A stretch of 64,000 bases of DNA from Raillietiella orientalis (lineage: Eukaryota). The stretch spans positions 310,001-374,000 of the forward strand of contig JAYWIR010000054.1 of NCBI GenBank assembly GCA_036172245.1, written 5' to 3'. The notes under the pieces were generated by a model. That model was not told where the DNA came from, made no database searches, and worked only from the letters and a program-made list of their open reading frames with translations. This document shows, in pieces, positions 5,368-50,639 of the stretch (within the stretch, counting starts at the first letter, position 1; each line of letters opens with the position of its first letter). A program made the position numbers and the translations under genes.

Positions 5368-5407
5368 TTGGCTTCTCGGTCTTTTGGCTAAGATCAAAGT
5401 GTAGATC
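5368..5407 (+). pseudogene. U2: U2 snRNA 5' fragment (about nt 4-37)
   Basis: gcttctcggtcttttggctaagatcaaagtgtag matches the U2 5' end (ATCGCTTCTCGGCCTTTTGGCTAAGATCAAAGTGTAG) with one mismatch. It is flanked by the direct repeat aagcct at 5361-5366 and 5409-5414. Confidence 0.9.
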
Positions 5408-9160: not shown

Positions 9161-9849
9161 CCCACTCGGAAGGAGGGAGGCAAAAGAAGGCTTCCACGCC
9201 TCCGCCGACGCGGTCCGCTTCGAACCAAGGACGAGCTGCTGGAAGCTCCGTCTCTCGTAGAACACACCGTCGAGGAGACGGGCAGCAGCACGTAACCATG
9301 GCCACCGTACTCGCAGAAGCGCCTTTGTCGTTATAAATAACCGTGCTTATAAATAACCCTGTCGGTGTAAGTAGCCCCGAAGCTATAAATAACCCATCAC
9401 TTGTAAACAACAACAATGGAAGTCTGTTGCTATTTTCGGCCACCGAAATAGGAAATAAATAAAGAACGGCGCAGCAAATAGGGGAGCGTTTCTCCGTTTG
9501 AAAAAAAAAAAAAAATCCTCTGACTTCTTTGTCTGGGTTCCGTGGAGACCCATTCCGTCCGACAAAGACAAGGCCGGGCGCAGACACCCCGGGCGAGTGG
9601 TCCGTGTGTTTTCCGAGGGAGGGAGTTTGCTTTTTCAGCACGCTGCCATTGTTCGGGCACAACAGGAGAACAAAAACATGGCTCTAAACTCGAATCCTGG
9701 TTGTTTCCCAGCTCCTCATTGCTCTTAATTAAAAGGTTCCATTTGCATACGGATGGTCCGAGTAATTCATCGCGGACGGAGCAAAAAATGGGACGTCATG
9801 ATTGGAAGGAGGGGACCCGGCAAGAGCGCCTGGCGACGCCTCGCGATTG

Positions 9850-11220
9850 CCGCTCGCGAACGGCAAACGCTAAGATCATCGTGAGCTTGCAATCATGGAG
9901 ACGCTCGCTGATTGCGAGCTCCGATCGTGGATGGCTCCTCTTGCGTGGGCATCACGGAAAGCGAAATGGAAGTCTGACAGGTGCCGAGGCGGACGCACGC
10001 GCTCGGAACGGAGGGCTCGGGTGCACAGGAGGAATGACTCCCAGGGAGGCAGGGGAGCACGTTCGGGCAAGCACCGTGGGTCGACTCCTTCCAAGGTCAC
10101 CGCGAGCTCCACCGAAAGAGAAGCCGTCGGGAAAAGAAATCGTCCGTGGATTTCGCGCGCTACCTCTCTGCCGCCGCCGCCTTGTTTGCATCGGTCTCTT
10201 GGATGAGCCCTACGCAACGGTAATTTCGTGGGGCACCAGCGTCCACGGTCTCGAAACCCTTCAGGTGTGCGTGCGGTCCACCTCCGGGGTGCTCACCCGG
10301 GCACGTCGCGAGCAGCAGCACACGGAAGGAAGAGGATGGTGTTTTTGCAGGCGTTCCGATCAGACCCGTTCACAGACGCAGCCACCCGACCCGAAGGACT
10401 GCGTCGCCGAAAAGAGCTATCGGAAATTTCTGGAAAACATTCTCCGCAGGAGATACGGTGGCCTCCAGCATGTTGGAACAGTGCCGCCCTCCCCCTAAAG
10501 TGGCAGGAGTCGGAGATCCTTCTGTTGCACTGGGGCATCCCGTGCAACAGAAGGATCTCCGCTGACACTACGAGACCCGGGGGAGGAGGTGAGCCCCAAC
10601 TGCAGCAGATGAGGCGAAAGAGAGTCCCTTGCGCACCTGCTCACGAACTGTGTGGCCCTGCACCCCCTGTGGGGGAGGCCACACAGTCCATGAGCAGCCC
10701 ACTCCACTTTGCCGCGTCCCTGCGGATCCCCGAGGGCAACCCCAGAGACGTTCTGAAGTGCGCGACGCCCTCACGCCGGCCGCATCCCCAGCAGCATTGT
10801 GCAGTCCATGCGCGATCGTGGCTGCATGGAGCAACGCCAGAGGAGGCCACGGCGACAGGGACGCATCCATTTTGGCGTCCCCTTCATGAGAACAGCCAGA
10901 AGATGGCCCCGTCTGGGCATCCTGAGGAAGGAACTTTCCGGCATCCTTTCAGGGATGCAGAGGACGCCCTTCAGCACCCGCTGGGCCCTTTCAGAATCCT
11001 CCCAATTTTTGTCGTATATATATATGTATATATTTTTGTTTGATTTTTCTCTTTTGTTTGTCCCCTTCCCTCTGCTGCCGCAGTGAACCTCGCCAGCCTG
11101 CGGGTGCCGGTTCTCTGCAGGTTCCCATGGTTATATCTGTAACGTGGCAGGACCAAGAGTCCTACCACTGACTTGTATTTTATTTTTTAAAAAATAAACG
11201 CCCCGACACAATTGGGTCTC
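9850..11220 (+). mobile_element. 5'-truncated L1/Tx1-like element (post-RT region to 3' end)
   Basis: KIIVSLQSWRRSL and RNGGLG motifs, LPLKWQESEILLLHWGIPCNRR, RWPRLGILRKELSGILSGMQRTP, UTR hairpin and aataaacgcccc. Confidence 0.8.
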
Positions 11221-12075
11221 AGACCGGGCTCGTTTCCAGTCACTAAACAGCTCGGCTGATGGCCAGCGTCAAAGGTGTCTCTGTTGACTCGTCTGGTTGC
11301 TTGAATGGCGCGCGCACCACTTACCTCGACCAAACAAGAAAAAAAAAACGAAGAGGTTCCAGAAGCAGCATGGCCACCGGTCAGGAAGGAGACCATCTCA
11401 AAGTCTCGGCTACCTCGCAAACAGCCGGAACTTTGCGAGGCGCTGCCCCCGGTCGCAGCGGAGGTCGGCGGCAGGCGACGACGCGGCCAAACGATCTCAC
11501 TCCCGCTCCTTCCACCTGTGACCTCGGAAGAGACGACGCATTCTGAGTTGCGGAGACCGCAACTTTCCCTGCCTGCGCGTTCCCTGGCGGGGAGGAACGA
11601 CCCAGATTACCCCCGAGAGGGGGGAGCAAACGGCGCGATCCCCAGGCAGCAGCTGCTTCCACGCCCATGCCCCGAGCAGGAGACCGGCTCCCTTCCCGGC
11701 CCAGTCGCTCGGGCTCCCGGATTCTCGCCCGCTCACCTCCGCCGCAGCTTCGCGAGTGACCTCTCCCAGCAAAGGAGCGACGTGAAGGAATGCAGTGAAG
11801 AGGGAACGCCAAAGCGCTCTCTCCTCCTTTGTTCCGCTTCTCCGCATCGTCTCCGACCATGATGGGTCGACAGCCATCAGAGCATCCGGATGATGCAGCA
11901 TCATCCGGGAGCTTTTCGAAATGCCGCATTCCGTGCTTTCTCTCCCTTCTGGGATAACGTGAATAGTTCTCTCAAAAATGCCCACTCTCCCCTCCATTCG
12001 ACAACCCCATTCCCCCTGCACAGCCGTCTGGTCTCGTGGCTGCCTCACGCTCCGGCAGCATCGCAGGAGGCGATC

Positions 12076-13090
12076 CGCGTTGCCTGGAGACCGCGGCAGA
12101 CCAGCTTCCGCGCGTCTTCCAGGTAGCGCCCACGGCCGCCCGAAAGAGGGACGCTCGCCTTGAGACGCGAGCATCTGAAGGGGCAAGTCTCGAGGAACAA
12201 CCCCGTATGAGCGACGCCCGACAGGAAAGGGGGGGGAGTTCACATCGCGCGCAGGAAGCGAACCGCGTCTCCAGCCGCCGAGCAACGTCCTCGAGCGAAA
12301 TGCAGCAAAACGCGTCGGACGAGCGCAGCCCACGACCGCTGCCCCGGGTCTCCCCTACCCGCGTTCCCTGTACTTCCCGCAACGCGAGCGCACGCTCAAC
12401 GGACCTTCTCCCGGGCACCCCGGGGCATCTATTTATAGAAAGGCCAACGCCCTTCGCGGAATGGAGAGCGCCAACCCCACCGCCGCCGGAGAGCACAGGT
12501 TTAGCCGGGATGCCGGCGCGCGGACCGAGGAAGGTCTCCCCGGCAACGGAGGAGAGCGGGTCGGGCGGAGGAGAACCTCTGGGGCGCCACGCCGCATCGC
12601 CCACACCCTTTCGAGGACACCAGCGGGTCGCGCAGTACGCGGTCCAGGCGGGGTCGCCCTCCCGCCGCGCGCCGCGAGCAGAGCGGGAAGTGGACGGCGT
12701 CCCTCCCGTCCAGGGGCCTCTTCCGTCAGAGTCCTCTGCAGGCAACAAGGAGAGGCGGCGGGGCGTTCCGCGGGAAGAGGCGCTGCCAAGCGCACCTGGA
12801 GTTGCGCCAGACGAGGCGCAGAGGGGCGCCGCCAGACAATTCCCTGGGACCCTCCGGGGTTCTCCTGGGAATCGAGGAGCCCTTCGGGGCTGCCCCTGCG
12901 GCTGTGAAAGTGAAGCCGTCCCCTTTCCCCCTCGGAAGGTGACCCTCCATCTCGTATCCCGGAGCTAGCGGGTCGGTGCCTCCTCCAGAGCGTGAAGAAG
13001 CGCTCTGCTCCCTTCGGGAGGGACCCTTCCGAGAAAATCGGGAAGCGTCCCTTCAGGGTCCTCTTCAGGGGAGGGAGCCAGGAGGCACCC
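12076..13090 (+). mobile_element. Element C: GC-rich 5' half joined to a family D body; left arm of a large inverted repeat
   Basis: Near-identical reverse-complement match to 18200-18686 plus 19523-20060. Confidence 0.85.
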
Positions 13091-17965: not shown

Positions 17966-20060
17966 TTTGCTTCCCCTTGGCTCGCCAGGCGCTCTACAAC
18001 CGTTGCCTGACAGCTCGCGAGGCTCCTCAACGCTGTCCGTGCCACTCGAGAGGACGCGCAACTCCTCAAGATATAGGGGAGCCCCCCTCATGAATCCGAG
18101 AAGGGATCCACAGGAAGCAGCGTCCGTTCCTCTGCCGCTTGGGAGGGAGTCCCGAGGGAATTCCTCATTCACCAATGAGGTACCTCCCGGAAAGGATCCG
18201 CCCCCTTGGTCTCCTCCCTTGAAGAGGACCCCGAAGGGACACTTCCCGATTTTCTCGGAAGGGTCCCTCCCGAAGGGAGCAGAGCGCTTCTTCACGCTCT
18301 GGAGGAGGCACCGACCCGCTAGCTCCGGGATACGAGATGGAGGGTCACCTTCCGAGGGGGAAAGGGGACGGCTTCACTTTCACAGCCGCAGGGGCAGCCC
18401 CGAAGGGCTCCTCGATTCCCAGGAGAACCCCGGAGGGTCCCAGGGAATTGTCTGGCGGCGCCCCTCTGCGCCTCGTCTGGCGCAACTCCAGGTGCGCTTG
18501 GCAGCGCCTCTTCCCGCGGAACGCCCCGCCGCCTCTCCTTGTTGCCTGCAGAGGACTCTGACGGAAGAGGCCCCTGGACGGGAGGGACGCCGTCCACTTC
18601 CCGCTCTGCTCGCGGCGCGCGGCGGGAGGGCGACCCCGCCTGAACCGCGTACCGCGCGACCCGCTGGCGTCCTCGAAAGGGTGTGGAACAAGGTGGTTGG
18701 ACAACGGGCCAGCTGACTGATGCTGTGATCCCAAGTGCCCCACCGAGAGGACTATTGCGCTGGGTCAAGCTGCTGAGCATGCCGATGGATGTACTCGAGT
18801 GGACCCCAGTGCTGAAGAATACCCGGGCCCTCCCCCTGAAGTGGCAGGAGTCGGCGTTTCTGGTGTTGCACTGGGGACTCTCCAGCAACGCCCGCCGATC
18901 TCACTGGAGAGGGGGGCTGTGGACCCGAACTGTGTCAGGTGCGGGGAACGGGAATCCCTCCCGCACCTGCTTCTTGACTGTGTTGACCTCCGGCCCCTGT
19001 GGTTGCATTTCACATCAGCCCTTGGTGCAACCATGAACAGCCCCAGCGACGTATTTAAGCGCCTCTTTGTGCGCGACGCCCTTTCGCCTGTGGCAGCCCT
19101 AGCAGCCCTCTGCTGCCTACGAGGGATTGTGGGGGCCTGGAGCACCTCCACTGGTGGACCGAACGATAGGGACGCCATTGGCTCCGCCCTGCGCTTCCCG
19201 AGGACGGCAGTCGGATGGTCCGTTCTGGGACGTATGCGGACTGAACTTGCCGGCATCCTGGGAAGGATGTAGGGGACGACCCCAGCGGAAAGTGATCCCC
19301 TTCCCCTTCCCCGCCCTGCTTTATTAAATGGTGTTTTCTTTTTTTTTGTTTTTATTTGTCCCTTCCCCCTCCGCTGCAGGGTGGAACTCGCCGGCCTGCG
19401 GGCTGCCTACTCGACAAGTTCAGAGTTTTTATCGGACGCTGTAGGGACAATGGCCCTACAAATGCTTGTTTGTTTTTTACAGAAAAATAAACGCCCCGGC
19501 GCACCCGGGTATGAAAGAAAGGAAGGGTGTGGGCAATGTGGCGTGGTGCTTCCGAGGTTCTCCTCCGCCCGACCCGCTCTCCTCCGTTGCCGGGGAGACC
19601 TTCCTCGGTCCGCGCGCCGGCATCCCGGCTAGTCCTGTGCTCTCCGGCGGCGGTGGGGCTGGCGCTCTCCCTTCCGCGAAGGGCGCTGGCCTTTCTATAA
19701 ATAGACGCCCCGGGGCGCCCGGGAGGAGATCCGTTGGGCGTGCGCTCGCGTTGCGGAAAGCGCAGGGAACGCGGGGTAGGGGAGACCCGGGGCAGCAGTT
19801 GTGGGCTGCGCTCGTCCGACGCGTTTTGCTGCATTTCTCTCGAGGGCGTTGCTCGGCGGCTGGAGACACGCGGTTCGCTTCCTGCGCGCGATGTGAACTC
19901 CCCCCCCTTTCCCGTCGGGCGTCGCTCACACGGGGTTGTTCCTCGAGACTTGCCCCCTCGGATACTCGCGTCTCAAGGCGAGCGTTCCTCTTTCGGGCGG
20001 CCGTGGGCGCTACCTGGAAGACGCGTGGAAGCTGGTCTGCCGCGGTCTCCATGGAACGCG
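17966..20060 (-). mobile_element. Element C/D second copy, split by a LINE insertion at 18687-19522
   Basis: Reverse complement of 12076-13090; continues into the family D 3' part down to ~17966. Confidence 0.85.
18687..19522 (+). mobile_element. 5'-truncated L1/Tx1-like insertion with 10-bp TSD
   Basis: LPLKWQESAFLVLHWGL, DPNCVRCGERESLPHLLLDCVDLRPLW; TSD aagggtgtgg at 18677-18686 and 19523-19532; the empty site is visible in the paralogue at ~12601-12610. Confidence 0.92.
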
Positions 20061-20469
20061 GGGTCTCAGGATGGTTCGTCCCCTTCTCACGCAATCTTTC
20101 GGCAATTTCAATGTTGTCCTTTGCTCGGTGCACTTCCGGAGGATGTTCTTTCCCCTACTGAATGGACCGGAACTGCCTGGATGCAGCGCTCGCGCTGGTT
20201 CGCCTTTCCCAGCGCGCTTCCCTACCGGGACGCTCTGTAGATCCTGCTTCCGCATGACGTCCCGACTCGGGGCAATCCGCTCGGGCGGTCTTTCAGAGGA
20301 TGGAGCATCGGAGCGACGCCTCGTGCCTCGGGGGGATGGGGACCCTGGCAGTCCGCCCTTTGGTTCCCGCAGGCGCCTCCGTGAACCGTCCGATGTCGAT
20401 CCACGCAGTCTGAGGTCGTGCTGCACTGTTCCCGTTTCCTTGTTTTCTCCCCGGAGAGGATCGGCTCTC

Positions 20470-22099: not shown

Positions 22100-23240
22100 T
22101 ACCTGGTTACCGGCTACGCGGGACTGTCTTCGTTCCTGGCGCGGTGGCTCAGACGCAGCGTGTCCAGCTGCGGACTCCGGCGAGTGACCAAGCTGACCAG
22201 GACCAACAACTGGATCCCCTGCCGACACGCGAACGGCAGCATCTGGTTGCAGGAAACCGTTCGCACATGGGCCCAGAACAGGAAGCGGGCCGGAGATGCG
22301 GCAGTGATTGCTGCACCTTCTGCAGCAACCGCTCGCTGCAGACGTCATCGTGCAGCGCACCACGTATGCGTGGGCGCACAAAGATCACTAGCCGTGATAC
22401 TGCCGTGCCTCAGGGAGCACCTGGGAAGTAACCAGCTGGCCAAATGGGAGGTCAATCGCGAAACCAGTCAGTAGACGAGGGAACTAGGTGGTTGGACCAC
22501 AGGCCAGCTCACGGACGCTGCGACCCCAAATGCCGCACCGAAGGGACTACTGAGCTAGGACGAGCTGCTGAGAATCTCATAAGAAGACCTCGAGTGGCTT
22601 CCGGCACTGAAGAAGAACCAGGCACTCCCCCTAAATTGGTAGAAGTCGGCACTTCTGCTGTTGCACTGGGGTCTCCCGTGCAACGCCCATCAGTCTCACT
22701 GGACTCGGGAAGCTGTGGACCCAACCTGTTGCGGGGAACGGAGATCCTTCCCACACCTGCTCGCAGACTGTGCCATGCTGTGGTTGCGTTATGCAACGGC
22801 CCTTGGTGCACCAACGGACCATCCCAGGGACGTGATGAGCTCCTCTTTGCGCGACACCCCTTGGCCTGCCGCATCTCGAGCAGCTCTTTGCTACCTACGT
22901 GGGACTGTGGCGGCCTGGAGCTATGCGAGAGGAGGGCGGTGCGATAGGGACGCTGTCTGCTTCGTCCTGCACTTCCTGCGGGCGGCTGCTAGATGGCCCC
23001 TGGGGCATACTCTAATGAAACTTGCCGGCATCCAGGAAAGAATGCAGAGGACGCCACCCAGAGGGCAGGGATCCCTTCCTGTGCCCCGCAGTTTTTGTTT
23101 TTTTCTTATCAATTTTCATTTTATTTTTTATTTTTGTTCGCTCCTCCGCTGCCGAGACGAACTTCGCTGGCCTGTGTGCCGGTTACGCTGCAGATTCCCA
23201 ACATTTTCGGGCGATGTAGGACCGATGGCCCTACACCGGG
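22100..23240 (+). mobile_element. 5'-truncated L1/Tx1-like element
   Basis: LHWGLPCNAHQSHWTREAVDPTCCGERRSFPHLLADC...RWPLGHTLMKLAGIQERMQRTP; UTR hairpins. Confidence 0.85.
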
Positions 23241-25099
23241 TGATAGAGCGAGCGTGCGCATCCCATTATCGGGAGAGAACTTTGCGGATCCTCGCAGGCA
23301 AAGACGACACACATCTTCCCTTCACTTCCGAGGGACTTCTAGCGGCACCCTCATCAACGGGCGAGCGCCAAAGAAGCGGAGTCGGCCGGTTGCATCAGTT
23401 TTACCCGATCAGCTACGCCCCCGCACCTTCGGAATTCAGCGTGGGGCGTTCTCGCAGCAGCTAGTGGTCTGCGAGAGTCGAGTGACTCCCAGAAGACATG
23501 GAACGGAGAAAGCTCTCAAAGAAAGACCGAAGATGGAAAGGAAAAAAAGGGACCTATTGCTTAGGATGAGCTTCCGTCCGCTCGAGAGTGTCGCCGTCGC
23601 AAGGCAGGCTGCTGCTGCTTTCGCCTCCTGCGCTCTTCGAGGGGAGCGCCTTTCCCTCCCTGCGAAGATCTGAAACGCTGGAGCGCAGCTTCCGCACGCC
23701 GCCCCTTCCGCTGGAGCGACCCGCTCCGGGAGCGCGACCCGTCGGCGCGGAGGAGCAGAGTCGGGTTCCGCTTCGGCTCCGGCAGGCGTCGCCACCGCCC
23801 GGAGCCCGAAACGGGCATCATCCTTCATCCTCGGTCGCCTGGAGAAAGCACAGCGAAGGTGGTGCACCATCTGAAGCTGCGAAAGAAGATCCGGAATTCT
23901 ACTTCCGGCCATTCCCAAGAGACAATTCTCATGGACGCGCGTGCGAGCCCCGGACGGCCCACAGGCTTGCCAGGGAGAAGGCGGCGGCAAGTGAATACAT
24001 AAGAAATAAATAGACAGAGGAAAGGGGGTCGGAACGCTCGGTTTCTGCAGCAACCCGGTGGCTATTACGGTTCCGCAAAAGCGCTCATTCATTCCTCTGT
24101 GAGGAAGAGGGATCAACTCAACCGACCCCGCCCGCATGAAGGAGAGATGCAGAAGGCTTAGCGGACTCGCTGGAGCGGCCCTAGGCCACCTAGCACGTCA
24201 GCATCGTGCCGCCGAGGACCCTCGCCCACTGGTAGGAAGAGTCCTCTGCAAAGAGCGAAGAAGTTTCCCCTCTGCGTGCAGCGGGGAGGCTGCTGGGAGT
24301 AGTCGCTGCTTTCTGAAAGAGAGCCTCGGTCCAGCGACGGGTAAAGGGACCTCTTCGGTTTCCTCGATCTCCGCTCGTTCCAGAGGCGACTTGCGACAGC
24401 CAATGGTGCCTTGGGCCGCCGCTGATCTTCCGAGGGGCGTCTCCGGGAGGTGGCCCGCCGCCGCTCACATCCGGGACGCACCGGGAACGCCAAGGGTTGC
24501 GTGGCAGTTCGCCTTTCTCGTGATGAGGAGGTGCGGTGAGTTGGCCCCATCTGCGGCAAGGAGTGGAAGGGGGACCCCTTTCCCATTCCTTCTTCCTCCC
24601 GCTCTCTCTCGCAGACGAGCTGAGGGTCGAAGGTCAGCTGGAATGCCAAAAATTTGCCGGCGTCCACCACCTCGCTCGGCTGACGAAGAACGACAGGGGT
24701 CAACTGAGGGTGCGCATCTGCTTCGGGAAGGGGTCGTCCGGACTACACCCGAGCGGATCCTCCTCAATGACTGCCCTCTTCCTCCGCCTCCGCAGGGATG
24801 GGAGGCTGCGCGTCGGTGGGGAGATCGTCAACGTCATCGGGAGGAAGGGATGCAGGGCATGTTCCCGGAGCAGACCACACTGTCCTGTCCACTGCGTGGA
24901 TCTGGTCTTGGCCCATCCCTCTCCGTGCGTTGCCCTGGTCTTCGATAAAGGCCCCGAACGCAAGACCTTGAGCCGCACCAATCCTCGTTAGGCGTTACTC
25001 GTTACTTCGCCAAGGGGCATCTGTGAGGACCATCCTCCCCTCTGAACATTTCGTGGACAGCGTCCAGCTCAAGGAAGGAGGCAAGATCCTGCTGCCCCT

Positions 25100-30045: not shown

Positions 30046-32059
30046 TTACCGATGCGGGAAACCCTCTGACCAGGAAGCAGAGAGCGAGTCCTCGCTACTG
30101 ATCGCTCTCTTTCTCTTTTTTACCGGAGCCATTGGCGGATGCTCGTGTGAGCAACGATCGGAGTCCAGCACGATCGCCTTCAATGCACATCCAAAGCATT
30201 GAGAGCAACTCTTCATTGGATGTCGGAACACATTCTTCTTCAGCGTGATCCTCTGACCACATCCTCCACTCCCCTTGAACTCTTCATCATTGCTTGGATT
30301 GTAAGCTCCGACTGAGAACGCTCCTTCCGTGGAGATCGCTCCTCCGCAGAAGGAGTGGTGAACCAAATCTCTCAGTTATGTTTCTTTCTTTTGTCTCTTT
30401 TTCTAGTACTGCTTCTGAAGCCTTCGTAGTGATCTAAGACGTCCAGAGTGAGCTTTTTGCCCATTCCAGAAATAGTCCAGGTCGAGGTCAGCAGCTCATG
30501 GTGTCTCAGAGCGAGTCTCTACCTCTGGGTCGCCAGTGAATCGTGTCTTGAGTGGATCATGAGTTGGTGCATCCATTTGGGACCCGTCCTAGTCATCCTT
30601 CCCACCTATTCACGTCATCTCTGGTGGGATACGTCCTCACATGTTTGTTTTTTTCAAGGAAGGCTTTGAACATACGATGGAGGGCGTTTCTACGACCGCT
30701 GTCAGTGACTCTTTTTCTCCCAGCTGACTCTGTGACCCACCTTCCATTATGGGGAGATGACCCATTTAATGCCTGTGGCACACATCCTTCGATAACTTCA
30801 TTTCTTTTCTCATGAAACTTGCTTCTCCCTCAGGTGTTTCTAGTTCTCCGATTCCATCGCTTCTCGAAGATTCTTTCAAGATCCCAGGGATGCTAGCGGG
30901 ATTGTTGTTACGTTGAAGACAAGATGGCTGCAGCCAGCCATTGAAAGCAGCTCTTGTGTCCTGTCTCTTCCAGTCCCGATGACAAATATTCATAGGATTG
31001 ACCATCTTCTTTCACACTGGATCACTAGATATGCCTTCAGTTCGGAATCTGTTTCTGGAATGGGCTAGCTGTGGGTTCCCGGCTCCCAAAGCCTCAGGGA
31101 AGTCTCTCTGGATCCGTGTGATCACCTCTTTCTTTCGGATGATCGTCAGCTTCTGACACATCTATCGAGGATGTAACACGGTGGTTTCTTCTTATCTTTC
31201 CCGCCTGCTGAGGAGGGCGAGCAGAGCCGTTCCCGGTGGGCGATGGCCACACAAGCGGAAGGTTAATTTGTGCCGCATGAATGAATCTGTGATCGACGAA
31301 CCGAACGTGTTCGGCGTGGAATGGAAGATGCCCTGGAGGCCGGTGCTGCCGAAAGCGGAGCGCGGCCTTCTTCTCGATGCCGACTACTTCGTGTCAGGTG
31401 CTGCCACGTGTCGGAAACCGTGAGCAGGTCCAGGAGGTGAGCTTTCCTGCTCTTGCATCCTCGTGACGAACGTCCGATTATCGAACGCAACTTCGGGTAC
31501 TTCTCCCTGAAGCGTTCGTCCACTCTTGCTCCGAACCGTGCGGGAGATTCTGGAAGAGGAATCGTTGGCGTGGAGGAAGATTTTCCCTGCTGATCCGGAT
31601 GCCTTCCGTGACGCGCTTCACTTGAAAGATTGCCACCGGAAAAATCCACGCATGGCATTCGCGAGCCAGGCGAAATGGGGGGGGAGAGTTCTTGAGGATT
31701 CACCTCTTTGAGTGGCACATCTCTGTGAGCGCCACTTTAGGCAACAGGTGATGCCATTGGAGAGCCTCTCTCCCGGTTGCTCAAAGGCACTTGGTGCTTT
31801 CAGTGACCACGCAAAGGCAGTCTGGGCCCTACCACGTTCCGCAGATACTGACGAGTGCATTTGCTGCTCCGTATGCAGATATATTGTCTACAAAACAGCA
31901 GATACATTTGTCAGTCGTTGAGGGAGATCCTAGGAAACACCAGGAATCTGTTCGTCCTCCCGCCTTCTCCCCAGTGCTTCCCTTTCTAAGGGGAACAATG
32001 AACAGCCAGCTGCCAGCAAGGTTAAAAGTGACCTGCATAATATGAAATACGAAAAAACA

Positions 32060-32940
32060 TCTGGGGTACATCTGAGTGGACAACTCGGGAGCTGGCGGCT
32101 GCTGCCATCCCGGGCGTCCCTCCAAAAGAACTGATACGCTGGGGAGGACTACTACAAATTCCTCCTGATGAGGTACAGTGGAACAGTGCTTCCCTCCCTC
32201 TAAAGTGACAGGAGTTGGCGATCCTTCCGTTGCATTGGAACCTCCCGTGTAACGCCCGTCGACAACATTGGACCTGGGGGAGTGCGAGTCCAAACTACAA
32301 CAGGTCAGCGAAAGAGTCTCTGGGGCTGCGTGGAGCAACGCCAGAGGAAGCCTCTCCTCCGCACTTGCTCCTGGATTGTGTTGCCCTCCGCCCCCTGTGG
32401 GAACGCTTTGCCGCGTCCCTGCGGCATCCCCAAGGGCAACCCAAGACACGTTCTGAAGCTCCTTTTCTTGCGCGACGCCTTCACACCGGACGCATCCCCA
32501 GCAGCCTTCTGCCGCCTTCGCGGCAGGATCATGGATGCGTGGAGCAACGCCAGAGGACGCCACGATGACAAGGACGCCATCTACTTGGTCGTCCCCTTCA
32601 TGAGGACAGCGTCAAGATGGCCCCATCTGGGTATCCTTAGACAGAAACTTGCCAGCATCCTGCAAAGAATGCAGAGGACGCCCTCCAGCACCCGGTGATC
32701 CCTCCCCGAACCCTCCCAATTTTTTGTATATATATCTTTTTCCCATCCCCTCTCCTCTGCTGCCGAGGCGAACCTTGCCAGCCCGCGCGCCGGTACTCGA
32801 CAGGTTCCTTTTTGTATATACACCTTGATCTTAGTCAAAAGGCCGAGAAGCAATACGTGTAACGTGGCAGGACCAAGTGTCCTGCTACTGACTTCTATGT
32901 TAATTTTATAAATAAACACTCCTGTGCAACTGGGTGTCGA
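32060..32940 (+). mobile_element. 5'-truncated L1/Tx1-like element with a U2 fragment in its 3' UTR
   Basis: LHWNLPCNARRQHWTWG...PHLLLDCVALRPLWERFA; RWPHLGILRQKLASILQRMQRTP; UTR matches 11070-11215. Confidence 0.88.
32819..32854 (-). pseudogene. U2: U2 snRNA 5' fragment (nt 1-36)
   Basis: The minus strand reads attgcttctcggccttttgactaagatcaaggtgta, three mismatches to the U2 5' end; it is absent from the homologous UTR at ~11125-11140. Confidence 0.9.
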
Positions 32941-32979
32941 CCACGTCCCGCAGCGGTCGCAGAGCAACGCATCCCACGA

Positions 32980-33560
32980 GCCATTCCCGGTGGGAGAGGG
33001 GCAAGCAAAAGGAAAAATAAAAGGAAGAAAATCAAATGGAAAATAAATAAGCGACATTTCGGGATGGATGGATTCAGGAAGGGATCATTGTCTGCTTAGG
33101 GGCGTTCTCTGCATCCTTCCAAGGAAGTCGGCAAGTTCGGGTTGCATGCTTTTCAGATGGAGCCATCTCGATGCCATCCTCAAGTGGACCGCAAAGTGGA
33201 TGGTGCGTCCCTGTGCTTCTCTCCTCTCTCTCGGCGGCGCCCCATGCAGCCGAAGTCCCGCGTAGGCAGCAGAGCTGCCGGGGATGCGGCTGGCGGTGCG
33301 AGGGGCACCGCATGCAAAAGGGCGTTTCAAACGCCTCCGGGGGTTGCCGTTCAGGGTCCGCAGGGTCGCGGCGAAACATTCGCACGTGAGCCCGAGGGTC
33401 ATACGTGCAGTTCCGCAGTGCCATGTTAGAATGGTAGAAGCGTCGATTCCTGCCACTAGAGAGTGAGGCCGCCGACCGTTCTAGAAAGCTGAAGGCCACT
33501 CGAGATCTTCTTAGGGAATTCTCAGGAGCGCTCTCTGGCGCGAAAGTCCTTCCATGGGGC
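32980..33560 (-). mobile_element. L1/Tx1-like 3' end, tail-to-tail with the previous copy
   Basis: ECFAATLRTLNGNP...RMASRWLHLKSMQPELADFLGRMQRTP. Confidence 0.8.
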
Positions 33561-34680: not shown

Positions 34681-34699
34681 CACCTGGTCACGCTGCGGC

Positions 34700-35460
34700 G
34701 TTCACTGAACACACAACAACAAAATAGAAACTGTTGTGGCTGAGCACACGTGGCTCATAACACGCCTGCACTTTACAAGGGACCTGCAGAGTTGCCGGTG
34801 GGCGGGCCGGAGAGGCTCGCCTCGGCAGCGGAGGCTAGGAGGGGATACGAAAAGGGAAACAAAATAAAAAACACCATAGAAGACCGACGAGGGGTCACGG
34901 TTCACTGCATTCCTTCCAGGATGCCGGCTAGGGTCCGTGTCTAGTGTGGTCGCCAAGGTCTGGTCATCTAGCCGCCATCCGCAAAAAGCGGAGCGCGTAG
35001 TCAATGGCGTCCCTCTCGTGCGATCCTCTTCCAGCGACTCTCCAGGCGGTCACAATCCTACGGATGCAGCAAAGAGCTGCCAAGGCTGCAGCTAGAGGTG
35101 CAGCATCCCTCACGAAGAGGATGAACGCCAAAGATGGACTCGAAAGGACGGACACCAGAGATGCTCAGGCACACGGTGGGAGACCTCTTCCGCAGGGACA
35201 ATTCCTGCGAGGACAGCATGGAGGAAGACCTCAGATGAAGAAAATCTGTTGGAATTTCTGACGCTTCGCAATCATCTGAGGAAGACCTCGGATGAAGAGG
35301 GCAGTTGCTTCGTACTGATCTATGGAAGAACTCACGAAGAGGGGTCGTAGAACGCTCCTGCGGTTGCCAACCCGGGTCCGCAGCGCCGTCCCAAAACGTT
35401 CCCACAGGAGCCGCAAAGCGACACTGTCCACAAGCAGGTGCGGGAGACATTATTGTTCCC
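34700..35460 (-). mobile_element. L1/Tx1-like 3' end interrupted by a 210-bp insert
   Basis: DSVALRLLWERFG...RPLFV | LFVRDAAPLAAALAALCCIRRIVTAW; UTR ctgccgag...ctctgcag. Confidence 0.85.
35121..35330. mobile_element. 210-bp insertion of unknown origin with 12-bp TSD
   Basis: ctcacgaagagg at 35109-35120 and 35331-35342; removing the insert restores the LINE reading frame motif. Confidence 0.8.
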
Positions 35461-35469
35461 CGCACTTGA

Positions 35470-35700
35470 GCTTTTCATCCGGTGACGACGGCTGCCGTGC
35501 TGGTGACCTCCCTTCGCTGCGAACCTGACTCCAGCACACATCAAGGACTGTCACTACGAAGCAGATGCAGCGCCCGTCTTCAGCCCGCCTGGAGTGAAGA
35601 AGAGCCGCAGCAAGTCCGCAGCAGAGTCCTTCGATCGGCGGAGCGCCGCCCGAAGGATGGTGCTGGTCCCCGCAACGTGTCCTCCAGAACACCACCAGTC
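35470..35700 (-). mobile_element. Subfamily G 3' fragment
   Basis: LHSRRAEDGRCI..VTVLDVCWS.VRSEG, shared with 26075-26200. Confidence 0.8.
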
Positions 35701-35969
35701 CGGACCGACTGAGGCAGAAGCCCGGACTCGTGCTTCCCAGCGTCCAGTGATGTCGACAGGAGCCGCAGGGAAGACCCCGATGCGGCAGCAGGAGTGCTTA
35801 CTCCTGCGACTTCAGAGGGAAAGCGCTGCTGTTGAGGAAAGTCCGGTATCCACTGCAGGTCTTCGCAAGGAAAACCGAGCAGCTCGCCCCAGTGTGAAAG
35901 TGTCCACGTGGAAGGATATTCGGGTCGCTGCGTTGGTCAACTTCTCCATGGTGCAACCACTTATTTCCT

Positions 35970-36585
35970 TTTCAGGGAGAACGGGGATGGATCCAGACTG
36001 CAGCAGGTGCGTAGAACGCGAATCCCTCCCCTCGCCTGCCCGTGGTCGTGTTGCCCTGCGGCTGCTGTAGGGACGCTTTGCAGCGACGACTCTCCTCACG
36101 CCCATTTGACGACGCCGGGGACGCACTCAGACCCCTCTTCGTGCGCGAAGCATTGCCTCCGGCTGCACCCCAAGTAGCGCTTTGCTGTCTGCACGGGATT
36201 GCGGCCGCCTGGAGCGACGTCAGGAGAGGAGGCTGCGCCAGGAATGCCATTCACTTGGCCCTACGTTGCGTTGGGCAGCGAGATCCTCAACTGAAAAAAA
36301 CCGGAGAAGAATTTGCCGGCGCCCTCGAGAAATGTAGAGGACAGTCTCCAGCAAGCCTCGACCCCTTCCCGTGCTCCCCCAAAATTTATTTTCCTCATCT
36401 TTGTTCCCATCTTTTGCTTTCTGTTTTCCCCTCTACTGGTGAGACCGCCTTCGCACCGTTGTGCCTATCGGCTTCTCGGTGTAGGTTCTCCATTGTCTGG
36501 ACGCGTTAGGGCCAGCAGCCCGACTACCTCTGCATGTTTTTCTTTCCTTTTTCAACAAACAGATGCTCCGGCGAACCCGAGTGAA
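35970..36585 (+). mobile_element. L1/Tx1-like 3' end
   Basis: DPDCSRCVERESLP, LRPLFVREAL, ALCCLHGIAAAWS; UTR ends ...cccgagtgaaaa. Confidence 0.8.
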
Positions 36586-38576: not shown

Positions 38577-39989
38577 CATCGCCTTCCACCAGCATGGCGC
38601 TTCTTTCCCCTTAGGTGGATGTCGAAGTCTCCTGCCACCGTCCCGGCTTGGGGAGCAGCGCACCTTCCCAGCCGGCTCAGGGAATGAGACCCATCTTCGT
38701 TGAGCAGCTCTCTGCGCTCCCGAAGGGTGCCTTCCCCTGGGAATGGAGTCGGCGCCGGTGAAGGAATCACCTCGTCCTCCTGGTACCACTGCGTTTCGGC
38801 CGAGCGTGGGGTCTCTGCCGAGGGTTACAGAGGAACCCCTCCCCCTCCTTCCCAGAGGAGTGGGTGTCCCACCTCTCCCGCTGAGATCCTGCGGCAGATG
38901 CCTGCAGCGCCCACGATTGCTCGTAAGGCTCTTCCCCTGTTTGCTTCATCGAAGGGTTGCGTCTCCGATTTGTCGGTGGGCCTGAGACTTCCCGAATTTT
39001 TCCCCAGAGGCTGAGCGGAACTGTTCTTAGGGACGCGCTCCAGGATCGCTTGCGGCTTCCCCCTTCCCTCCCATTCCCATCGCCAAACCTTCCCGCATCG
39101 GTTCGGCGCGATTTTGACTACGTGCACAGAAGTCGAAAGGTCATGTCAAAAGGACTCGTCGCAGACCATACGTCTCCTTCACATGCGGTCGGTGTCGCTC
39201 GGTGGCCCTTGACCGGAGCGCCTTCCAGCTTGCACAGGACGTCTTCAGCGTACACTTCCTGGACGATGAGCCGGACTGCGTGCACGACCGGTGACCCGTA
39301 GATGCCACCCGCCCTGGGTGCTTCTGAGCAAGCCGCTTCCATGCTTTCCTCAGGGGTCAGGAGACTTTCGGGTGCCGGTGCCGCGTCACATTGGACATGG
39401 TGGACAGCCTGCTCTTCAGCGCCTACTTCAGGTTGGTGCTCCGACGGCACACCGGGCCACCTCGCCGAGCTAGTATTCCGCCACTCCTGGCTAGCGTTTG
39501 CTTCTGTCCACGACCTTCCTCTCGACCCCGCTCCGCGTTGTCAGCCCCGGAGGCAGCAACCCAAGGATTCTTTGAGCTCATCCGATCGCGGTGCTGGCAT
39601 GGAGGTCAACGGGAACGAAATCGTCCGTGTGTGCAGTCGGTTCGGCGTAGGGTAGGACAGCCGAACTGGGTCCAGCTTGGGGATCCCCACGGCTCGGAAC
39701 TTCCAAGTACTTCAGTGCGCCGGGGAGGAATTTTTAATTTTTCTCCATAGGAGACACAGTTTAGCTGTCTACAGTGGGGAGATGGGCGAGAATCATCCTG
39801 GAAGCGAGGCAGCGAAGAAGGGCAGCGTCCGCGATCTTCCAGCTCCGCTCGCTATTCGCTGAAGAAGATGGCGGATTGCCCGAGGAAGACCCTGTGGACC
39901 CGGGAAACCTTTCTGGCGCTCCATGAGGGACAGCCAGGACAGCCGCCAACCCGCGATGCGGGAAGTGAACTTCGAGGCCACAGGAAAAG

Positions 39990-40640
39990 AGAAGCGGTTG
40001 GGATGCTGGACGGCGCGTACAGCCTCCCGCTACCCTCCTCGAAGGACTTCTCCGCTGGGCGAATCTCTTTGGAATCCCGTTGGAGGAAGTGGAGACTCCC
40101 ATAGTATTCCTGAACAGCTCCCACCCTCCCCTGAAGTGGCAGGACTCGGCGTCACGACTGCTGCTTCGGGTCATCCCATGCAACTCGCGCCTCCACCACT
40201 GGACCAGGGGAAGTGCGACCTCAAAGTGTGGCAGGTGCGGAGAAAGGGAAACGTCAGTGGACCTGCCTTTGGTCGTGTGTTGCCCTCCGGTGCGTGTGGG
40301 GACGTTTGACCACGTCCCTAAACCTCCCAGAAGACCATCCGAGGGCCTTTTTCGGACGCGTGGCGGGGGGTCGCTTGCCGCGACGACCGCGGCTTCGTGC
40401 TGCGTACGCGAGACCGTGGCGGCTGGAAGACACGACGACAGAGGCCGGAGCAACAGAGAAGCCACCACCTCCTTCGTCTTCTCTTTGCTGAGGATTGAAG
40501 AGAGATGGCCGTACCTGGTGGAACTTGCCGGCACCCTTAGGAGGATGCAGAGGCCGCCAGGGAGCAACCTGTAGTCCCTTCCCATGCTTCCCCAAACATT
40601 TAAAGACCCTTTTTTGTTTAACGTTTCCTTCTTTTTTTTG
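39990..40640 (+). mobile_element. L1/Tx1-like 3' end
   Basis: PLKWQDSASRLLLRVIPCNSRLHHWTRGSATSKCGRCGERET...RWPYLVELAGTLRRMQRPP. Confidence 0.85.
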
Positions 40641-42230: not shown

Positions 42231-44329
42231 CATTCTATGCGATCCTTCCATCCACTGAGTACACAAAGGCAGCTTTCGGGACAAGAGTTGCCAGCACTTG
42301 AAGAACGTAGGCGTTCTAGGCATCCCATGACCCCATGTCGCGCCAGCTGACTCTTGAACTTGCGGGTGCGAAAGTCACTGGCAGAAACCGAATTGAAACG
42401 CTTGGTCATGAACACCATCCGTGCGTGAACGGACGCGTCCATTCATGTCATTGAGCGATGGCTCGAAACGTGCGCCGCTTTCAATCGAAGAACACGGAAG
42501 AGACTTGCCCGAGTTGCCGTGAAGTGGAGGACCTTCATGCCTTACGCCCGTCTTCACTCACGAGGCGGCCCACTCCCATTGTCTTTCCGTTTTCGTTTTT
42601 CCGGGAAGGTGAGCCCACTGTACTCGATGGAAGAATAGCTCGAGATGGCAGTTTTTCTCTGTCACGTTGGTATTGAGCAGACAATGAATTTCACCTTTGA
42701 GGAATGGCTTGCCGTAAAACCTAAAATTGGATCGCGACACATCTTACCAAGTACACACCACCTCATGGTGTTCCATCCCGACCTCCAAGCGAAGTCACTC
42801 CATCACCTACGTCACCACTGTGTACCGCCGCACAGCGTACATTCTATGCTCCATTTTCGGGGCACGCAATCTGTATAGTGAAGTCGGTCCTGCAGGATCG
42901 AACCACTGTGGATGCGGACTGTTAGTGAGGGATTTATACGTTATTGTTTTGCGTGTGGTGGCGAGGTCAAAGAGTACCATACTAACCACGCGTCAATCCG
43001 TCAGGGTAGTTTCGTAGCCATCGTGGTTTGTTGTGATCTTTGGCTTGTTTCATGCGCTGGTGTTCATTGCAATGATTGTGGTTAATTCAAGAATTGTGAT
43101 TGGCATACAGGGGAAAAGCTGGTCAGTGCATGATAACGAGAATGCAAGCAATGGTGACGTTCATTCCAACGCCCCCATTACGTCAACAAGAAGGACTCCC
43201 GCAGTCAGCAAATTTCTCACAACCCACATTCAAAATCATTTGCTTCATCTTCTGCACCCTCTAACCACCTTTTCAACCTTATAACCACAATATCGGCTTG
43301 ATTCTAGCCACAGCATCAGTCCACCGATCCTTCTTGCTTCACCCGTACACGTACCACAACCATTCTTGCACCTTTCTCTCCAGCATCACCAAAGCTGCAA
43401 GGAGTTTTCATCTGTTTCGTGAGTTCCAGAAGTCAAAGGGCACGCTACCGAAATCTTGCGCGAAGGCTTGAAAAAAAAAAAAAAAAAGTACACACACAAA
43501 AAAATGTAAGTATAAAGATGACTACAATCCATTCAATGGCAAGTCGAGAAAGTTCGAAAAAAAGAAGAACGTGACGTCATGACTCTGAAGTTTGCTACTT
43601 CTATTCACTAATTTGGAGCATCGGTGAAGATGGAAAATACTCTATGAAAGAAAGGAAAAAAATGCAGCTGTTATCCCGTACTCCTTTATTGGACTCATAA
43701 GACTGGAACTCCTTATGTAGAAATGCGAGTGGAGCCAAAAAAAAGGGAATAAAGAGTACATAAGACCAAAAAAAAAAAAAAATTGGATGGAGTCAAATTG
43801 GAAAATTTATTTGACATCTCTGCTTTATGGCTTCAGTAATTCAATGCTCTCAGGCAGGTCCCATGCAAACAAGCGTGCCACGTAATGACACTAATAAATC
43901 ACCATGATCGAATCCACATTTACTACCTCTAATTTATTACCTCCAGATATTGTGCTTATCAACACTGTGACGTCGAACAAACAGCTGAGGGCTACCGGAC
44001 GAGTGCCCGATGGGTGGGGAATGCGTCCTCGAAACCGTTCGCTTCTAGTCTTGAAAAATCCCGCGATTCCAGTAGAGCAGCTCGTGTCCGGGTTCGTCTC
44101 CAGTTGCCGAGACAACACCAGGAGCCCACCAGCGCTTCCCGTCCCGGCTGGAAGCAACGTCTCCAAAGATGGGTCAGCACGCTGACAGGCGACCAGAAGC
44201 CCGGAGCCACGCCAGCCGCACCTCTCGTCATCCGCAATACGGAAGGCAGCCCGCGTAGGCTGCTGTGTGGCTGAGGTCCCTGCGCGTGTACCAAGCGTCG
44301 CGGGTTCGAATACCCGTAAAGGATCGACG

Positions 44330-44910
44330 TGGGGAAAAAAGACGCAGCTGGGATGCTGGGCGACGCGTCAACTGGCTGTACCCCCACCGCCCTCCCCAAA
44401 GGAATTCGTCCCTGGGTGGAATTCCTGGACGTTCCTCCTGATGAGGTACCCGATGCTTGTGGACAGCTCCACGCTTCTCCTGAAGTGGCAGGACTCCGCA
44501 TTGCAGTTGTTGCACTGGGCGATCCCATGCAAGGCGCGAGTCCACCACTGGACAAGAGGGAGTGCGGCCCCAGACTACGCCAGGTGCGGGGAACGGGAAA
44601 CCTTCCCGTGCCTGTCGTTGGATCGTGTTGCCTTCAGTGTCTGGGAATGCTTCGCTGCGGACCTCACCATTCCCGATGGACAACGGCAGAGAGGTCTTGC
44701 GGCGTTTGTCTCCTGCAGCTTCCTCCTTTGCAGCCCCGTGCTGCCTTGGTGGGGGGGTCGTCGCGGTAGCGAGAAGCCGCGTCGAGAAAGGCCAGTCGAA
44801 CGGGGAGGCCATCCCAATCGTCAGCTCGTTCATGAGGAAGGAGGCAAGATGGCCACATCCCTGCCAATAAAAGGAGTAAGTTGTCAACATCCTCCAGAGG
44901 ATGCTCAGGA
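44330..44910 (+). mobile_element. L1/Tx1-like 3' end (probably extends left to ~44000)
   Basis: LLKWQDSALQLLHWAIPCKARVHHWTRGSAAPDYARCGERETFP; followed by (CCTAA)2-3 at ~44933-44953. Confidence 0.85.
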
Positions 44911-47765: not shown

Positions 47766-49271
47766 CTATTTGGCACGTCCTTTTTTCCCCTTCACACCCT
47801 TCTTCTGTCCAGGCATTGGTCCTTTCTTTAGTCGGATTTGACCTGATTGCACGTCGGTGTGCGGCTCCCTGGAGGCCGCATTTTCGGCGCCTTGATTCGC
47901 GGTCCCCTTCTTAGCTTGTGGTTTCAGCTGTTCTACCTGCTGCTCTCTGCCACCGCCGGCTGACCCGGTCGTGGATGTTTGCTTCTGCTCGAGCTCTGCC
48001 TTGCTCTTCTGGGATGGAGGGCACTGTTGAGTCTTGTTGATCTGGTCTGGCAGCCCACGGCACTGTGCTTCACTGCCTTGTGGCTTCCTTGTGGCTTCCG
48101 CGGGCCGGTTGTCAGATCGGCGCGGGTTTTCTTCCGGACGCACCGCGGCACCACTGTTTTGTGTACAGTTCCCAAGCTGCTGCGTTCGCTTCTCATGAGA
48201 AGGTATCTGCACTTTCTGAACAGCATTTTCCGGTTGCTTTTGTGCGACAGGCGTGCTGCTTTGCTTCTCGCTTTTCTTCACCTTTTCGTTCTTTCCTTCC
48301 GCCTTGGTGGAGTCACCACTCGTGGTCAGCTTCCCTGCCGGCGGTAGTTCGTTCCCTATGTGGCTGATATCTTCCGGTGACCTCTTTTTCAGATCCTGCA
48401 GTATTGCCTGTACTTTACGCCACTGCGTGTACTTATGACAGTCCTTCCTCATGTGTCCAGGCCGCTTGCAAAAGTGACACTCCACCGGCTGGGTGCATTC
48501 ATAGTGCAGGTGGCCTTCCTGACCACACTTGTAGCACTTCGCCTTTGGGCAACCTGCTACTCGGTGACCAAACTGCTTGCAGACCATGCAAAACGTGGGC
48601 TGCTGCTTGTATTTTATCCTCACTTCCTGGGAATACGAGTCAATCATGTCGACTCCTGGAATGGCCGCTTCCTCATCAAGTTTTATTTTCAAGGTTCCTT
48701 CTCCGGAGAAGATCACACCTTTCAGGCTTTTGAACTGAACATCTTTTACTTCTCCGTATTGGGAGAAGTACTTCCAGATCGCCATCTTGTTAGTTTGGAA
48801 ACTGACGCCCGAGAAGAACACTGTCGTGTTGGTTGTCTCCCCGATACCGCGGATAAGACGGCCGTTGAGATTTATGCCTTCTTCAATGAGGGTGTCTGCT
48901 AGCTCTTCACAATCTGTGTGAATCGTGAACCCTCTGCTATACGGCACGATCGCCTGTATGTGGCTGAAGTCCACATTCTTCTTGAACAATGCGACATAAA
49001 TATTTCGTGGTTGCGCTAGTCTCACTGCCCCTATCTCGAAGGTAACTGTCTTGACTTCCGGGCCCACTTTGAAGATGGGCTCATCAGCTCTTTCGATCTT
49101 TAGTACGGCGGGCTCCACGTAACGCGTCGTCTGCGGCGGTGTACTTCCGGCCGCTCCCGATGTCGTCGCCACGGCCGCTTCCGCCTGCACAGCGGAGGCG
49201 GCTGCTGCCGAAGTCGTCTCCGTGGCTGGCGCAGCCGGCTTCCTTCCCGGCTTCGACTTGCGTATCACCAT
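47766..49271 (-). CDS. Intact L1/Tx1 ORF1-type (gag-like, ZCCHC3-like) nucleic-acid-binding protein, ~501 aa
   Basis: Uninterrupted ORF with first ATG at 49271 (open from 49331). It has an RRM-like segment (TVFFSGVSF...YFSQYGEVKDVQ...SGEGTLKI), three CX2CX4HX4C knuckles (CMVCKQFGHRVAGC, CYKCGQEGHLHYEC, CHFCKRPGHMRKDC) and a basic low-complexity tail. Confidence 0.9.
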   Translation of the reverse strand: MVIRKSKPGRKPAAPATETTSAAAASAVQAEAAVATTSGAAGSTPPQTTRYVEPAVLKIERADEPIFKVGPEVKTVTFEIGAVRLAQPRNIYVALFKKNVDFSHIQAIVPYSRGFTIHTDCEELADTLIEEGINLNGRLIRGIGETTNTTVFFSGVSFQTNKMAIWKYFSQYGEVKDVQFKSLKGVIFSGEGTLKIKLDEEAAIPGVDMIDSYSQEVRIKYKQQPTFCMVCKQFGHRVAGCPKAKCYKCGQEGHLHYECTQPVECHFCKRPGHMRKDCHKYTQWRKVQAILQDLKKRSPEDISHIGNELPPAGKLTTSGDSTKAEGKNEKVKKSEKQSSTPVAQKQPENAVQKVQIPSHEKRTQQLGNCTQNSGAAVRPEENPRRSDNRPAEATRKPQGSEAQCRGLPDQINKTQQCPPSQKSKAELEQKQTSTTGSAGGGREQQVEQLKPQAKKGTANQGAENAASREPHTDVQSGQIRLKKGPMPGQKKGVKGKKGRAK

Positions 49272-50639
49272 AACAAGACTGCGCTGTGCTGTCACGCGGT
49301 TCGTCTCCAAGTCCTTCCTCCGCACTAGCAAGTCCTGTCACTGTTGGGTGTGTGCTGGGGGTGGAAGGGAGGGATCATAAAGACAATATACCACTGCCAT
49401 CGACACAAACTGTGTGGTATCGTCCTTGAAACAACTATGTACCATTCCCTTTAGCCCTATTTCCCCACTCTGCCCCGTTGGCATTCCACAGCCGACTCAG
49501 GTGGGCTCGAAATCATGGAATCCCTACCTGCATAATGAGGTATTCATAAACATAGTGCCCCAAAGACAGACCAAAGTCTCGATCCGCCACCTTGCTTGTA
49601 CCAACCTGCAATTCAGGGCTGGACGGGAAACGAGCGAAGCAGGTTTTCCTGAAAGCATTCTGGAGAGGGAAGACCGCTCTTCGAAAGACCAGGAAGACCA
49701 TGCCTCTCGCTTCGTCTGGAAAGATCTGCTGCTGCTAATCCAACTCCCGTACAAGATCATCTTCAGTCGAGCGCCCTTGTCTCTTGGCTTTCTGAAGTCC
49801 TTGAGTCGCTTCTTCGCCCCCTCTCGACGTGATGACGGCAAGAGAAAGCCGACAGCTGCGTAGCAACCTTTTCGACAAGGCCGACAGGCTCATTGTGTTG
49901 CAATGGTAACCCCCCCGTGCGCGGGAAATCCGGCTGTGCGGTGCCGCGAACGCGAAACCCCACACTTCGCCCTCGTCGCCACATCGACGGAAACGCAAAG
50001 AACAAAGTCGGCTTCATCAAAAGAAAAGGCAGAGCGGACGCTTTGATGGCTTCCGACCTACGAGAATATCTCCCATCATCCAAGCACGCCCTCCGGTTCA
50101 CAGAGTCCGGATACATAGCTATTGCAATGCAGAAAAGTGCACATGATCCTTGGGCATGATCCCAGTGATTCTTGGGATCCCGAGAATTCCTAGGCATCCC
50201 TAGGCTGAGCACACCATCGCACCTGCCCAACCATCCATCCATCTACCAAGTGGCAGCAGCGGCACGAGATACCGTCCAAGCTGCTTGGCCATGCTCGACG
50301 GCGACAGCACATGCCAAGATACGGTGCAGTCGAGCTAGCAGACGCGAGCAGGAGGTGGGAGAAGGGGAAGGCAAAGAAGAAGTTCCCAAGAGGACTCCCC
50401 AATTTCCATGGATGGAGGCGGTGACAACGATAACTGCAGCCCTCTTCCACATCATGAAAATACCCTCACAATGTGGGATACCATTCTCTTCCGTAGGTTT
50501 CATCACGCAACACACTTATTCACTAGTCCAAATATTAGAAACATCCGGGGAAGGATGGAGCTACTATACAGAGAGTTAAGGTCTTCCAGTAGCTGTTCAA
50601 TCAATAACTCTGCAGTTGGTCAAAATGAGACACTGTGAC

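Follow-up and report, generated by a model that had tools for sequence, protein, structure and literature searches.

A U2 snRNA 5′ fragment antisense in a retroposon tail is best explained as an ordinary truncated retrocopy

How did the 5′ end of U2 snRNA come to lie, in antisense orientation, within the tail of a retroposon copy, and does it belong to a mobile element of its own? We addressed this question within a single window (the whole stretch of DNA analyzed, 64,000 nt). An initial annotation had described U2 nucleotides 1 to 36 in antisense orientation in the repeat tail, and an Rfam search bears this out: positions 1 to 36 of the U2 model (RF00004) align to 32819-32854 on the minus strand, with model position 1 at 32854, model position 36 at 32819, and high posterior probability throughout. 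The block thus comprises the U2 5′ end, stem-loop I, and the beginning of the next single-stranded stretch, and it is antisense to the host repeat. It agrees with the U2 consensus at 33 to 34 of the 35 aligned positions. Both arms of stem-loop I and its UUUU loop are all there, and the departures from the model amount to one substitution at a stem position, one at a variable position, and one extra base inserted after model position 30. Base 32819 is common to the host linker and the block; the unambiguous insert is 32820-32854, possibly with two to three more bases to 32857, so that a clean 35 to 38 nt has been added to the tail. The 5′ edge falls exactly on U2 model position 1, with no upstream U2 gene flank. 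On the other side, the U2 part stops in a stretch that is unpaired in the Rfam consensus structure, directly past stem-loop I.

The block scored 30.8 bits (E = 1.5 × 10−4 in a 401-nt search; E = 0.024 for the whole window against 4,227 Rfam families). This is below the Rfam U2 gathering score of 46 bits because only a fragment of U2 is there. No real alignment extends past position 36, and the remainder of the reported 229-nt alignment is filler, so the block does not qualify as a functional U2 gene. No match to any Rfam family reached its gathering score anywhere in the window. The low score is also what could be held in favor of a chance resemblance to U2, or of an origin from another RNA. 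That reading is effectively refuted by the near-complete agreement with the consensus, the intact stem-loop I, and both E values. Furthermore, 100 shuffles of the window gave no match to a 31-nt part of the block when as many as three mismatches were allowed, and no other RNA family rose above noise on this stretch in the Rfam search.

The repeat that hosts the block belongs to a family with at least 12 fragments in the 64 kb, as found by self-comparison and profile searches. The host itself, copy B (32077-32942, plus strand), consists of a frameshifted coding remnant ending in a TGA stop codon at 32696-32698, followed by a tail (32699-32942, plus strand). The tail runs from a T/TA-rich tract through a GC-rich module (about 32757-32808), a linker, and a terminal hairpin (“hairpin 2”; 32864-32888, plus strand; 10-bp stem, 5-nt loop) to an AATAAA at 32911-32916 and about 25 end bases, with no poly(A). 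The same plan holds across the family, with about 250 nt after the stop codon divided among the T/TA-rich tract, the GC-rich module, a linker of 10 to 14 nt, the hairpin, AATAAAC, and about 25 bases. The copies share their 3′ end, about 25 nt past AATAAAC, and have no A run there. Among six copies, the hairpin has eight consensus pairs, three of which show compensatory changes on both sides.

The closest relative of copy B is copy A (10369-11225, plus strand), which is 74% identical to it over 434 columns by blastn and has a nearly identical hairpin. Besides A, the site corresponding to the U2 block is empty in copies C (18687-19520, plus strand), D (22480-23245, plus strand), and E (63185-63910, plus strand), as well as in the diverged copy G (35978-36575, plus strand) and the diverged tail of copy H (34687-34897, minus strand). 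Copy F (32896-33375, minus strand), which lies tail-to-tail with copy B, has a tail too diverged for confident scoring of the site. The B (plus strand) and F (minus strand) tails meet near 32940-32950, and H (34687-35947, minus strand) and G (35978-36575, plus strand) are arranged head-to-head. These pairs, together with the total of at least 12 fragments, show a dense nested accumulation. A weak Rfam CcsR1 match at 10505-10606 on the minus strand (27.8 bits, E = 0.011, gathering score 65.3) covers a C/T-rich stretch in the remnant of copy A and is most likely an artifact of composition.

The initial annotation had labeled the host tail a LINE 3′ UTR. Upstream of the stop codon, the copies have in common a coding signature of about 600 nt, with a Cys-x2-Cys ... 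His-x4-Cys motif and about 110 conserved residues before the stop. In Pfam searches, zf-RVT was the only match, found in two of four copies tested (E = 0.05 and 0.1, under the 27.5-bit cutoff). The best score of the coding end in the ESM Atlas (0.84) was for a cluster in which 21% of the members carry zf-RVT, which we treat as a lead only. A profile search of 1.84 billion representatives returned one protein relative, P0005 (87 aa, E = 3 × 10−29), which forms a single-member metagenome cluster. With P0005 as the sole relative in that set, the retroposon family is almost unsampled in public protein sets. Longer relatives were absent from 8,000 scored candidates, and a metagenome scan with protein alignment gave 573 pattern matches, none of which was confirmed. 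A degenerate 35-nt DNA pattern matched five copies in the window and had no match in metagenome, genome, and viral collections.

Copy C gives the clearest view of how the family moves. It has an open 183-aa coding end (18721-19269) with a CCHC motif and is flanked by a target-site duplication of 11 to 12 bp (18675-18686 and 19521/19522-19532). The surrounding sequence is one arm of an inverted segmental duplication (12075-13086 versus 18200-18686 plus 19523-20061; 93 to 98% identity), and copy C interrupts this arm, whereas the other arm keeps the empty site around 12601-12612. Copy C was therefore inserted after this young duplication, and the target-site duplication together with the preserved empty site indicates a retroposon that was mobile fairly recently. 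It also follows that reverse transcriptase activity was available in this genome.

The target-site duplication, the common 3′ end, and the conserved 3′ stem-loop without poly(A) are LINE-type traits, the last of them of the stringent type. To judge from these features, the repeat appears to behave as a LINE 3′ end, and the label LINE 3′ UTR seems reasonable. No reverse transcriptase domain was found by Pfam in the 100 longest open reading frames (ORFs) of both strands plus 300 plus-strand ORFs of 45 to 157 aa within 1-45140. The same 400 ORFs held no endonuclease domain. All of the family copies that we saw are about 0.9 kb or shorter, and the host may instead be a LINE-derived nonautonomous element of about 0.85 kb. 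In seven family copies (A to E and two more), the 5′ ends cluster within about 80 nt, roughly 0.8 to 0.9 kb from the 3′ end (at 10250-10560, 18620-18900, 22415-22700, 31990-32270, 39880-40200, 44260-44570, and 63100-63340). This clustering exceeds what random 5′ truncation would give and may reflect a discrete nonautonomous element or a truncation hot spot.

Against this background, the block is readily seen as a secondary insertion, as had been proposed. The alignment of copies A and B opens a 37-column gap in A opposite the block, with the empty site falling between 11136 and 11137. This confirms the earlier remark that the homologous UTR at 11120-11150 lacks the block. Only one of the seven to eight copies that cover the linker (copy B) carries it; the other six to seven do not. 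The block is seated in the 10- to 14-nt linker, with the GC-rich module on one side and the covarying hairpin on the other, so that its description as lying between two structural modules of the UTR also stands. Without the block, the linker of copy B has the normal family length. The flanking tail has been left intact, and in a fold of copy B, the hairpin forms despite the insertion 10 nt upstream.

The junctions themselves carry few marks. At the U2 position 36 side lies TATAT, which is also present in copy A, and one to three bases there are common to host and U2. At the U2 position 1 side, two to three bases that differ from copy A come next. The best direct repeat flanking the block is 4 nt long and not significant, and set against the empty site of copy A, the block shows no duplication of 5 nt or more.

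One way to account for a U2 block in a retroposon tail is that it entered a master copy and became a character of a subfamily, so that a retroposon lineage would carry an anti-U2 tract in its RNA and copy B would be one of its descendants. Stringent-type LINE enzymes recognize a terminal 3′ hairpin, and since the covarying hairpin was spared by the insertion, an RNA of this kind could still be mobilized. The family is also diverse and includes at least one young copy (copy C). However, the block is missing from every one of the other six to seven window copies, including the closest relative A; the outside collections searched yielded no further copies; and copy B itself is frameshifted. We regard this origin as quite improbable.

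A second U2 stub lies in the same window, at 5368-5404 on the plus strand, and it bears directly on the origin of the first. It covers about positions 1 to 36 of the Rfam U2 model and scored 27.9 bits (E = 0.12 for the whole window). The alignment begins at model position 1, with the first two to four bases diverged, and an extra base follows model position 30, the same place as in the copy B block. No recognized copy of the host repeat surrounds this stub. Its U2 part ends at position 36, and that of the block ends at 35 to 36, or at 38 to 39 if the bases shared with the flank are counted. Both stubs thus stop at about position 36 of the 192 positions of U2, and their end points are about 1 to 3 nt apart, in keeping with the observation in the initial annotation that the two have nearly the same 3′ end. 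Aligned with each other, the stubs are 88% identical over 41 columns, but this similarity is confined to the U2 part, with nothing in common beyond it. The bases that follow either stub are host or flank sequence and include no A run.

Several candidate features around the second stub were considered and set aside. An apparent non-U2 extension shared by the stubs past position 36 is, in copy B, the T-rich stretch of the linker, which other copies also have. The stub does not serve as the 5′ leader of a full-length LINE that would span 5368-11225 and have copy A as its end, as no homology or domain was found from 5405 to about 10300. A short inverted repeat lies just upstream and includes the first bases of the stub itself (5357-5376), and a U2-internal heptamer is repeated just after the stub (7 nt; 5396-5411). 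Both repeats are within chance by a flank test, but snap-back or slippage of the reverse transcriptase could have left them as traces. As a signal, the inverted repeat taken together with the flanking direct repeats is likewise within chance. The best of the latter, an exact 6-nt repeat, was equaled or exceeded in 9.6% of 3,000 random placements and is not significant.

The form of both stubs resembles that of tailless retropseudogenes (Schmitz et al. 2004, as cited in PMC5322556; Noll et al. 2015, PMC5322556), which are described there as 5′ complete, devoid of an A tail, and 3′ truncated, the truncation points being fixed and lying in single-stranded regions. The two stubs share these traits: the 5′ end is complete (5 nt or fewer missing), the 3′ truncation removes 10 nt or more and falls in a single-stranded region, and an A tail is absent. 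U2 is among the commonest templates reported for this class, accounting for 666 of 2,402 strict human cases (PMC5322556). The length also fits. By our count of the U2 copies after the Anolis heading in Table S6 of PMC5322556 (the last 43 U2 rows), 31 of 43 are 31 to 39 nt long, and the mode, with 10 of the 43, is 36 nt. The first eight cow U2 rows of the same table are 33 to 44 nt long. Besides this modal length of about 36 nt, the likeness to the tailless U2 retropseudogenes of PMC5322556 extends to their occurrence as dispersed independent copies, one of them here nested in another repeat.

The resemblance is incomplete. The published class is defined by a flanking duplication of 8 to 35 nt at 70% identity or more (PMC5322556), which neither stub has at a significant level. 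Also unlike the cases described in PMC5322556, the stubs lie in a window with no L1 in sight and in an apparently nonvertebrate genome, at a local density far above the strict counts published there.

As tailless U2 copies cluster at about 36 nt, nearly identical stub ends are to be expected from independent events. The stub at 5368-5404 is, in our reading, an independent event of the same kind, and the two stubs end alike because internal priming on U2 has preferred sites, not because they descend from a common source. We therefore do not retain the proposal of a minimal U2-derived mobile stub family, since only the U2 part is common to the stubs and a shared end is typical of independent tailless copies. 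A comparison with the SINEU elements of crocodilians leads to the same point. Those elements also include short U2 5′ pieces in retroposed DNA (32 bp in SINEU-3), but as described by Kojima (2015, PMC4494074), they form families whose copies have a common non-U2 body and a poly(A) tail. The two stubs here have neither, U2 being all that they have in common.

Taken together, the feature is best explained as an ordinary 3′-truncated U2 retrocopy nested in a retroposon tail, of a known kind and not a new mobile element. More specifically, we consider it probable, at roughly two chances in three, that the block arose by a one-off, RNA-mediated retroinsertion of the 5′ part of U2 snRNA, of the tailless-retropseudogene kind, in the tail of copy B. 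The exact start at U2 position 1, the lack of promoter-side flank, and the stop in an unpaired stretch together point to reverse-transcribed U2 RNA as the template. In the sequence of events that we envisage, a nick or break, located at the TATAT common to copy A or beside it, would have exposed a plus-strand 3′-OH in the TA-rich linker. Over one to three bases, this 3′-OH end would have annealed to U2 in the single-stranded region that comes right after stem-loop I. A cellular reverse transcriptase of the LINE type would then have copied U2 to its very first nucleotide, and attachment of the cDNA to the opposite DNA end would have produced little target duplication or none. We infer how synthesis was primed, which enzyme was involved, and when the insertion took place relative to the integration of copy B. 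The insertion may have followed that integration or may already have been present in the source RNA of copy B, either of which is compatible with what one window contains.

Three observations pull against a tailless retrocopy. The definition of the class leads one to expect flanking duplications of 8 to 35 nt, and none is significant here. The class has been linked to relaxed L1, and the window shows no L1, nor any reverse transcriptase domain in the 400 ORFs. Finally, the density of the stubs may hint at a process more productive than sporadic events.

Template switching onto U2 by the LINE enzyme, which had also been suggested, would place the origin of the block within the retrotransposition of copy B. 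The polymerase making the second (plus) strand on the LINE cDNA would have jumped to U2 snRNA in the linker, run to its 5′ end, and jumped back to the neighboring cDNA position. For L1, chimeras of snRNA and LINE sequences that arose by template switching are on record (cited in PMC4494074). In the block, the U2 part runs exactly to position 1, a point at which the polymerase would run off and be forced into its second jump; a short shared stretch of the TATA type is present at the entry junction; and no clear target duplication flanks the block as such. The known chimeras, of the U6/L1 type (cited in PMC4494074 and PMC4476161), are also similar in that snRNA cDNA is joined to LINE 3′ sequence, presumably with a LINE reverse transcriptase involved. 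In those chimeras, however, the snRNA reads in sense and forms the 5′ end of a 5′-truncated LINE, within one target duplication (PMC4494074 and PMC4476161), whereas the block is antisense and internal, and LINE sequence homologous to copy A continues on both of its sides. This orientation argues against template switching during first-strand synthesis, which would give a sense block at a truncated 5′ end and would here require an antisense U2 RNA as the template. The second-strand version would probably need two switches, the second of which would have to land no more than about 2 nt from the point of departure. Moreover, the stub at 5368-5404 has the form of the block even though no LINE surrounds it. 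We consider template switching an unlikely source of the block, and the suggestion is not upheld in its first-strand form.

The end points of the stubs also invite comparison with the LINEs Keno (Tx1 clade) and Utopia, which insert into U2 genes. In the insertions described in PMC4640811, the 3′ U2 flank begins at nucleotide 39, placing the break between nucleotides 38 and 39. The 5′ fragment expected from such an insertion is nucleotides 1 to 38 (PMC4640811), which is 0 to 3 nt from the ends of both stubs. The block could on this basis have come from DNA rather than RNA, as the 5′ half of a U2 gene that was split by a LINE of the Keno/Utopia type and then moved by recombination, conversion, or use as break filler. 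Yet a Keno or Utopia insertion sits within a U2 gene, with the U2 fragment directly next to the end of the LINE (PMC4640811), while the block is an isolated insert with the same continuous retroposon tail on both sides, no LINE terminus adjoins it, and no such element is found in the window. The exact start at U2 position 1 and the missing promoter-side flank also speak against a DNA-level origin, as do the lack of Pfam matches in plus-strand ORFs downstream of the 5368-5404 stub and of any endonuclease or reverse transcriptase domain in the 400 ORFs. We regard this possibility as quite improbable too, slightly below a subfamily character.

Two stubs in 64 kb correspond to about 31 per Mb. The strict densities published for tailless retropseudogenes are 61 to 338 per Gb (PMC5322556). 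The window value is about 100 times higher (Poisson P for two or more stubs of about 8 × 10−6 to 2 × 10−4), in a comparison that is uneven, as the published counts were filtered for duplications and the window was picked after the fact. Two stubs in one 64-kb window hint at a high density across this genome, which is plausible. In the data of PMC5322556, the tailless class is tied to the relaxed L1 of therians and lizards, with none in chicken and platypus and eight in maize. A density of two per 64 kb, if it applied to the genome as a whole, would call into question the dependence of such copies on relaxed L1.

As it stands, the block is a genomic fossil of a known kind, and little changes with its discovery. 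Its interest lies in being a clean 36-nt U2 retrocopy outside the therians and lizards, to which PMC5322556 largely confines such copies, and in its place beside a LINE family without poly(A) tails. Nothing in the window gives evidence of a function for either stub, and none is implied; for annotation, a short U2 match, about 36 nt long, in this genome is to be taken as a retrocopy and not as a gene or a regulatory element. A bolder claim would be that 3′-truncated U2 retrocopies arise in this genome at rates that exceed those of mammals by orders of magnitude, by way of a stem-loop LINE without poly(A), and that the block in addition marks a transmissible subfamily. We think this combination very unlikely. 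If it were true, a built-in U2-pairing tract would be part of the subfamily RNA, namely 36 nt that are antisense to the 5′ end of U2 and span both stem-loop I and the beginning of the branch-point-binding stretch.

The window as a whole has a G+C content of 54.8% and a CpG observed/expected ratio of 0.90, which is not vertebrate-like; the genome is apparently that of a nonvertebrate. AT-rich islands (36 to 40% G+C) are located at about 50 to 54 kb and 58 to 60 kb. No other small-RNA fragments were detected in the window at E values up to 10, and no tRNAs were present. The window is gene poor and repeat rich, and a single zinc knuckle is the sole Pfam domain over threshold in the 400 ORFs. This CCHC knuckle (Pfam E = 2 × 10−7) is in the longest ORF of the window (47769-49337, minus strand; 523 aa), which has no reverse transcriptase ORF adjoining it. 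By language-model features, its product resembles ZCCHC3-like animal proteins (score of 0.93), and the ORF could be a host gene or an ORF1-like remnant of a LINE.
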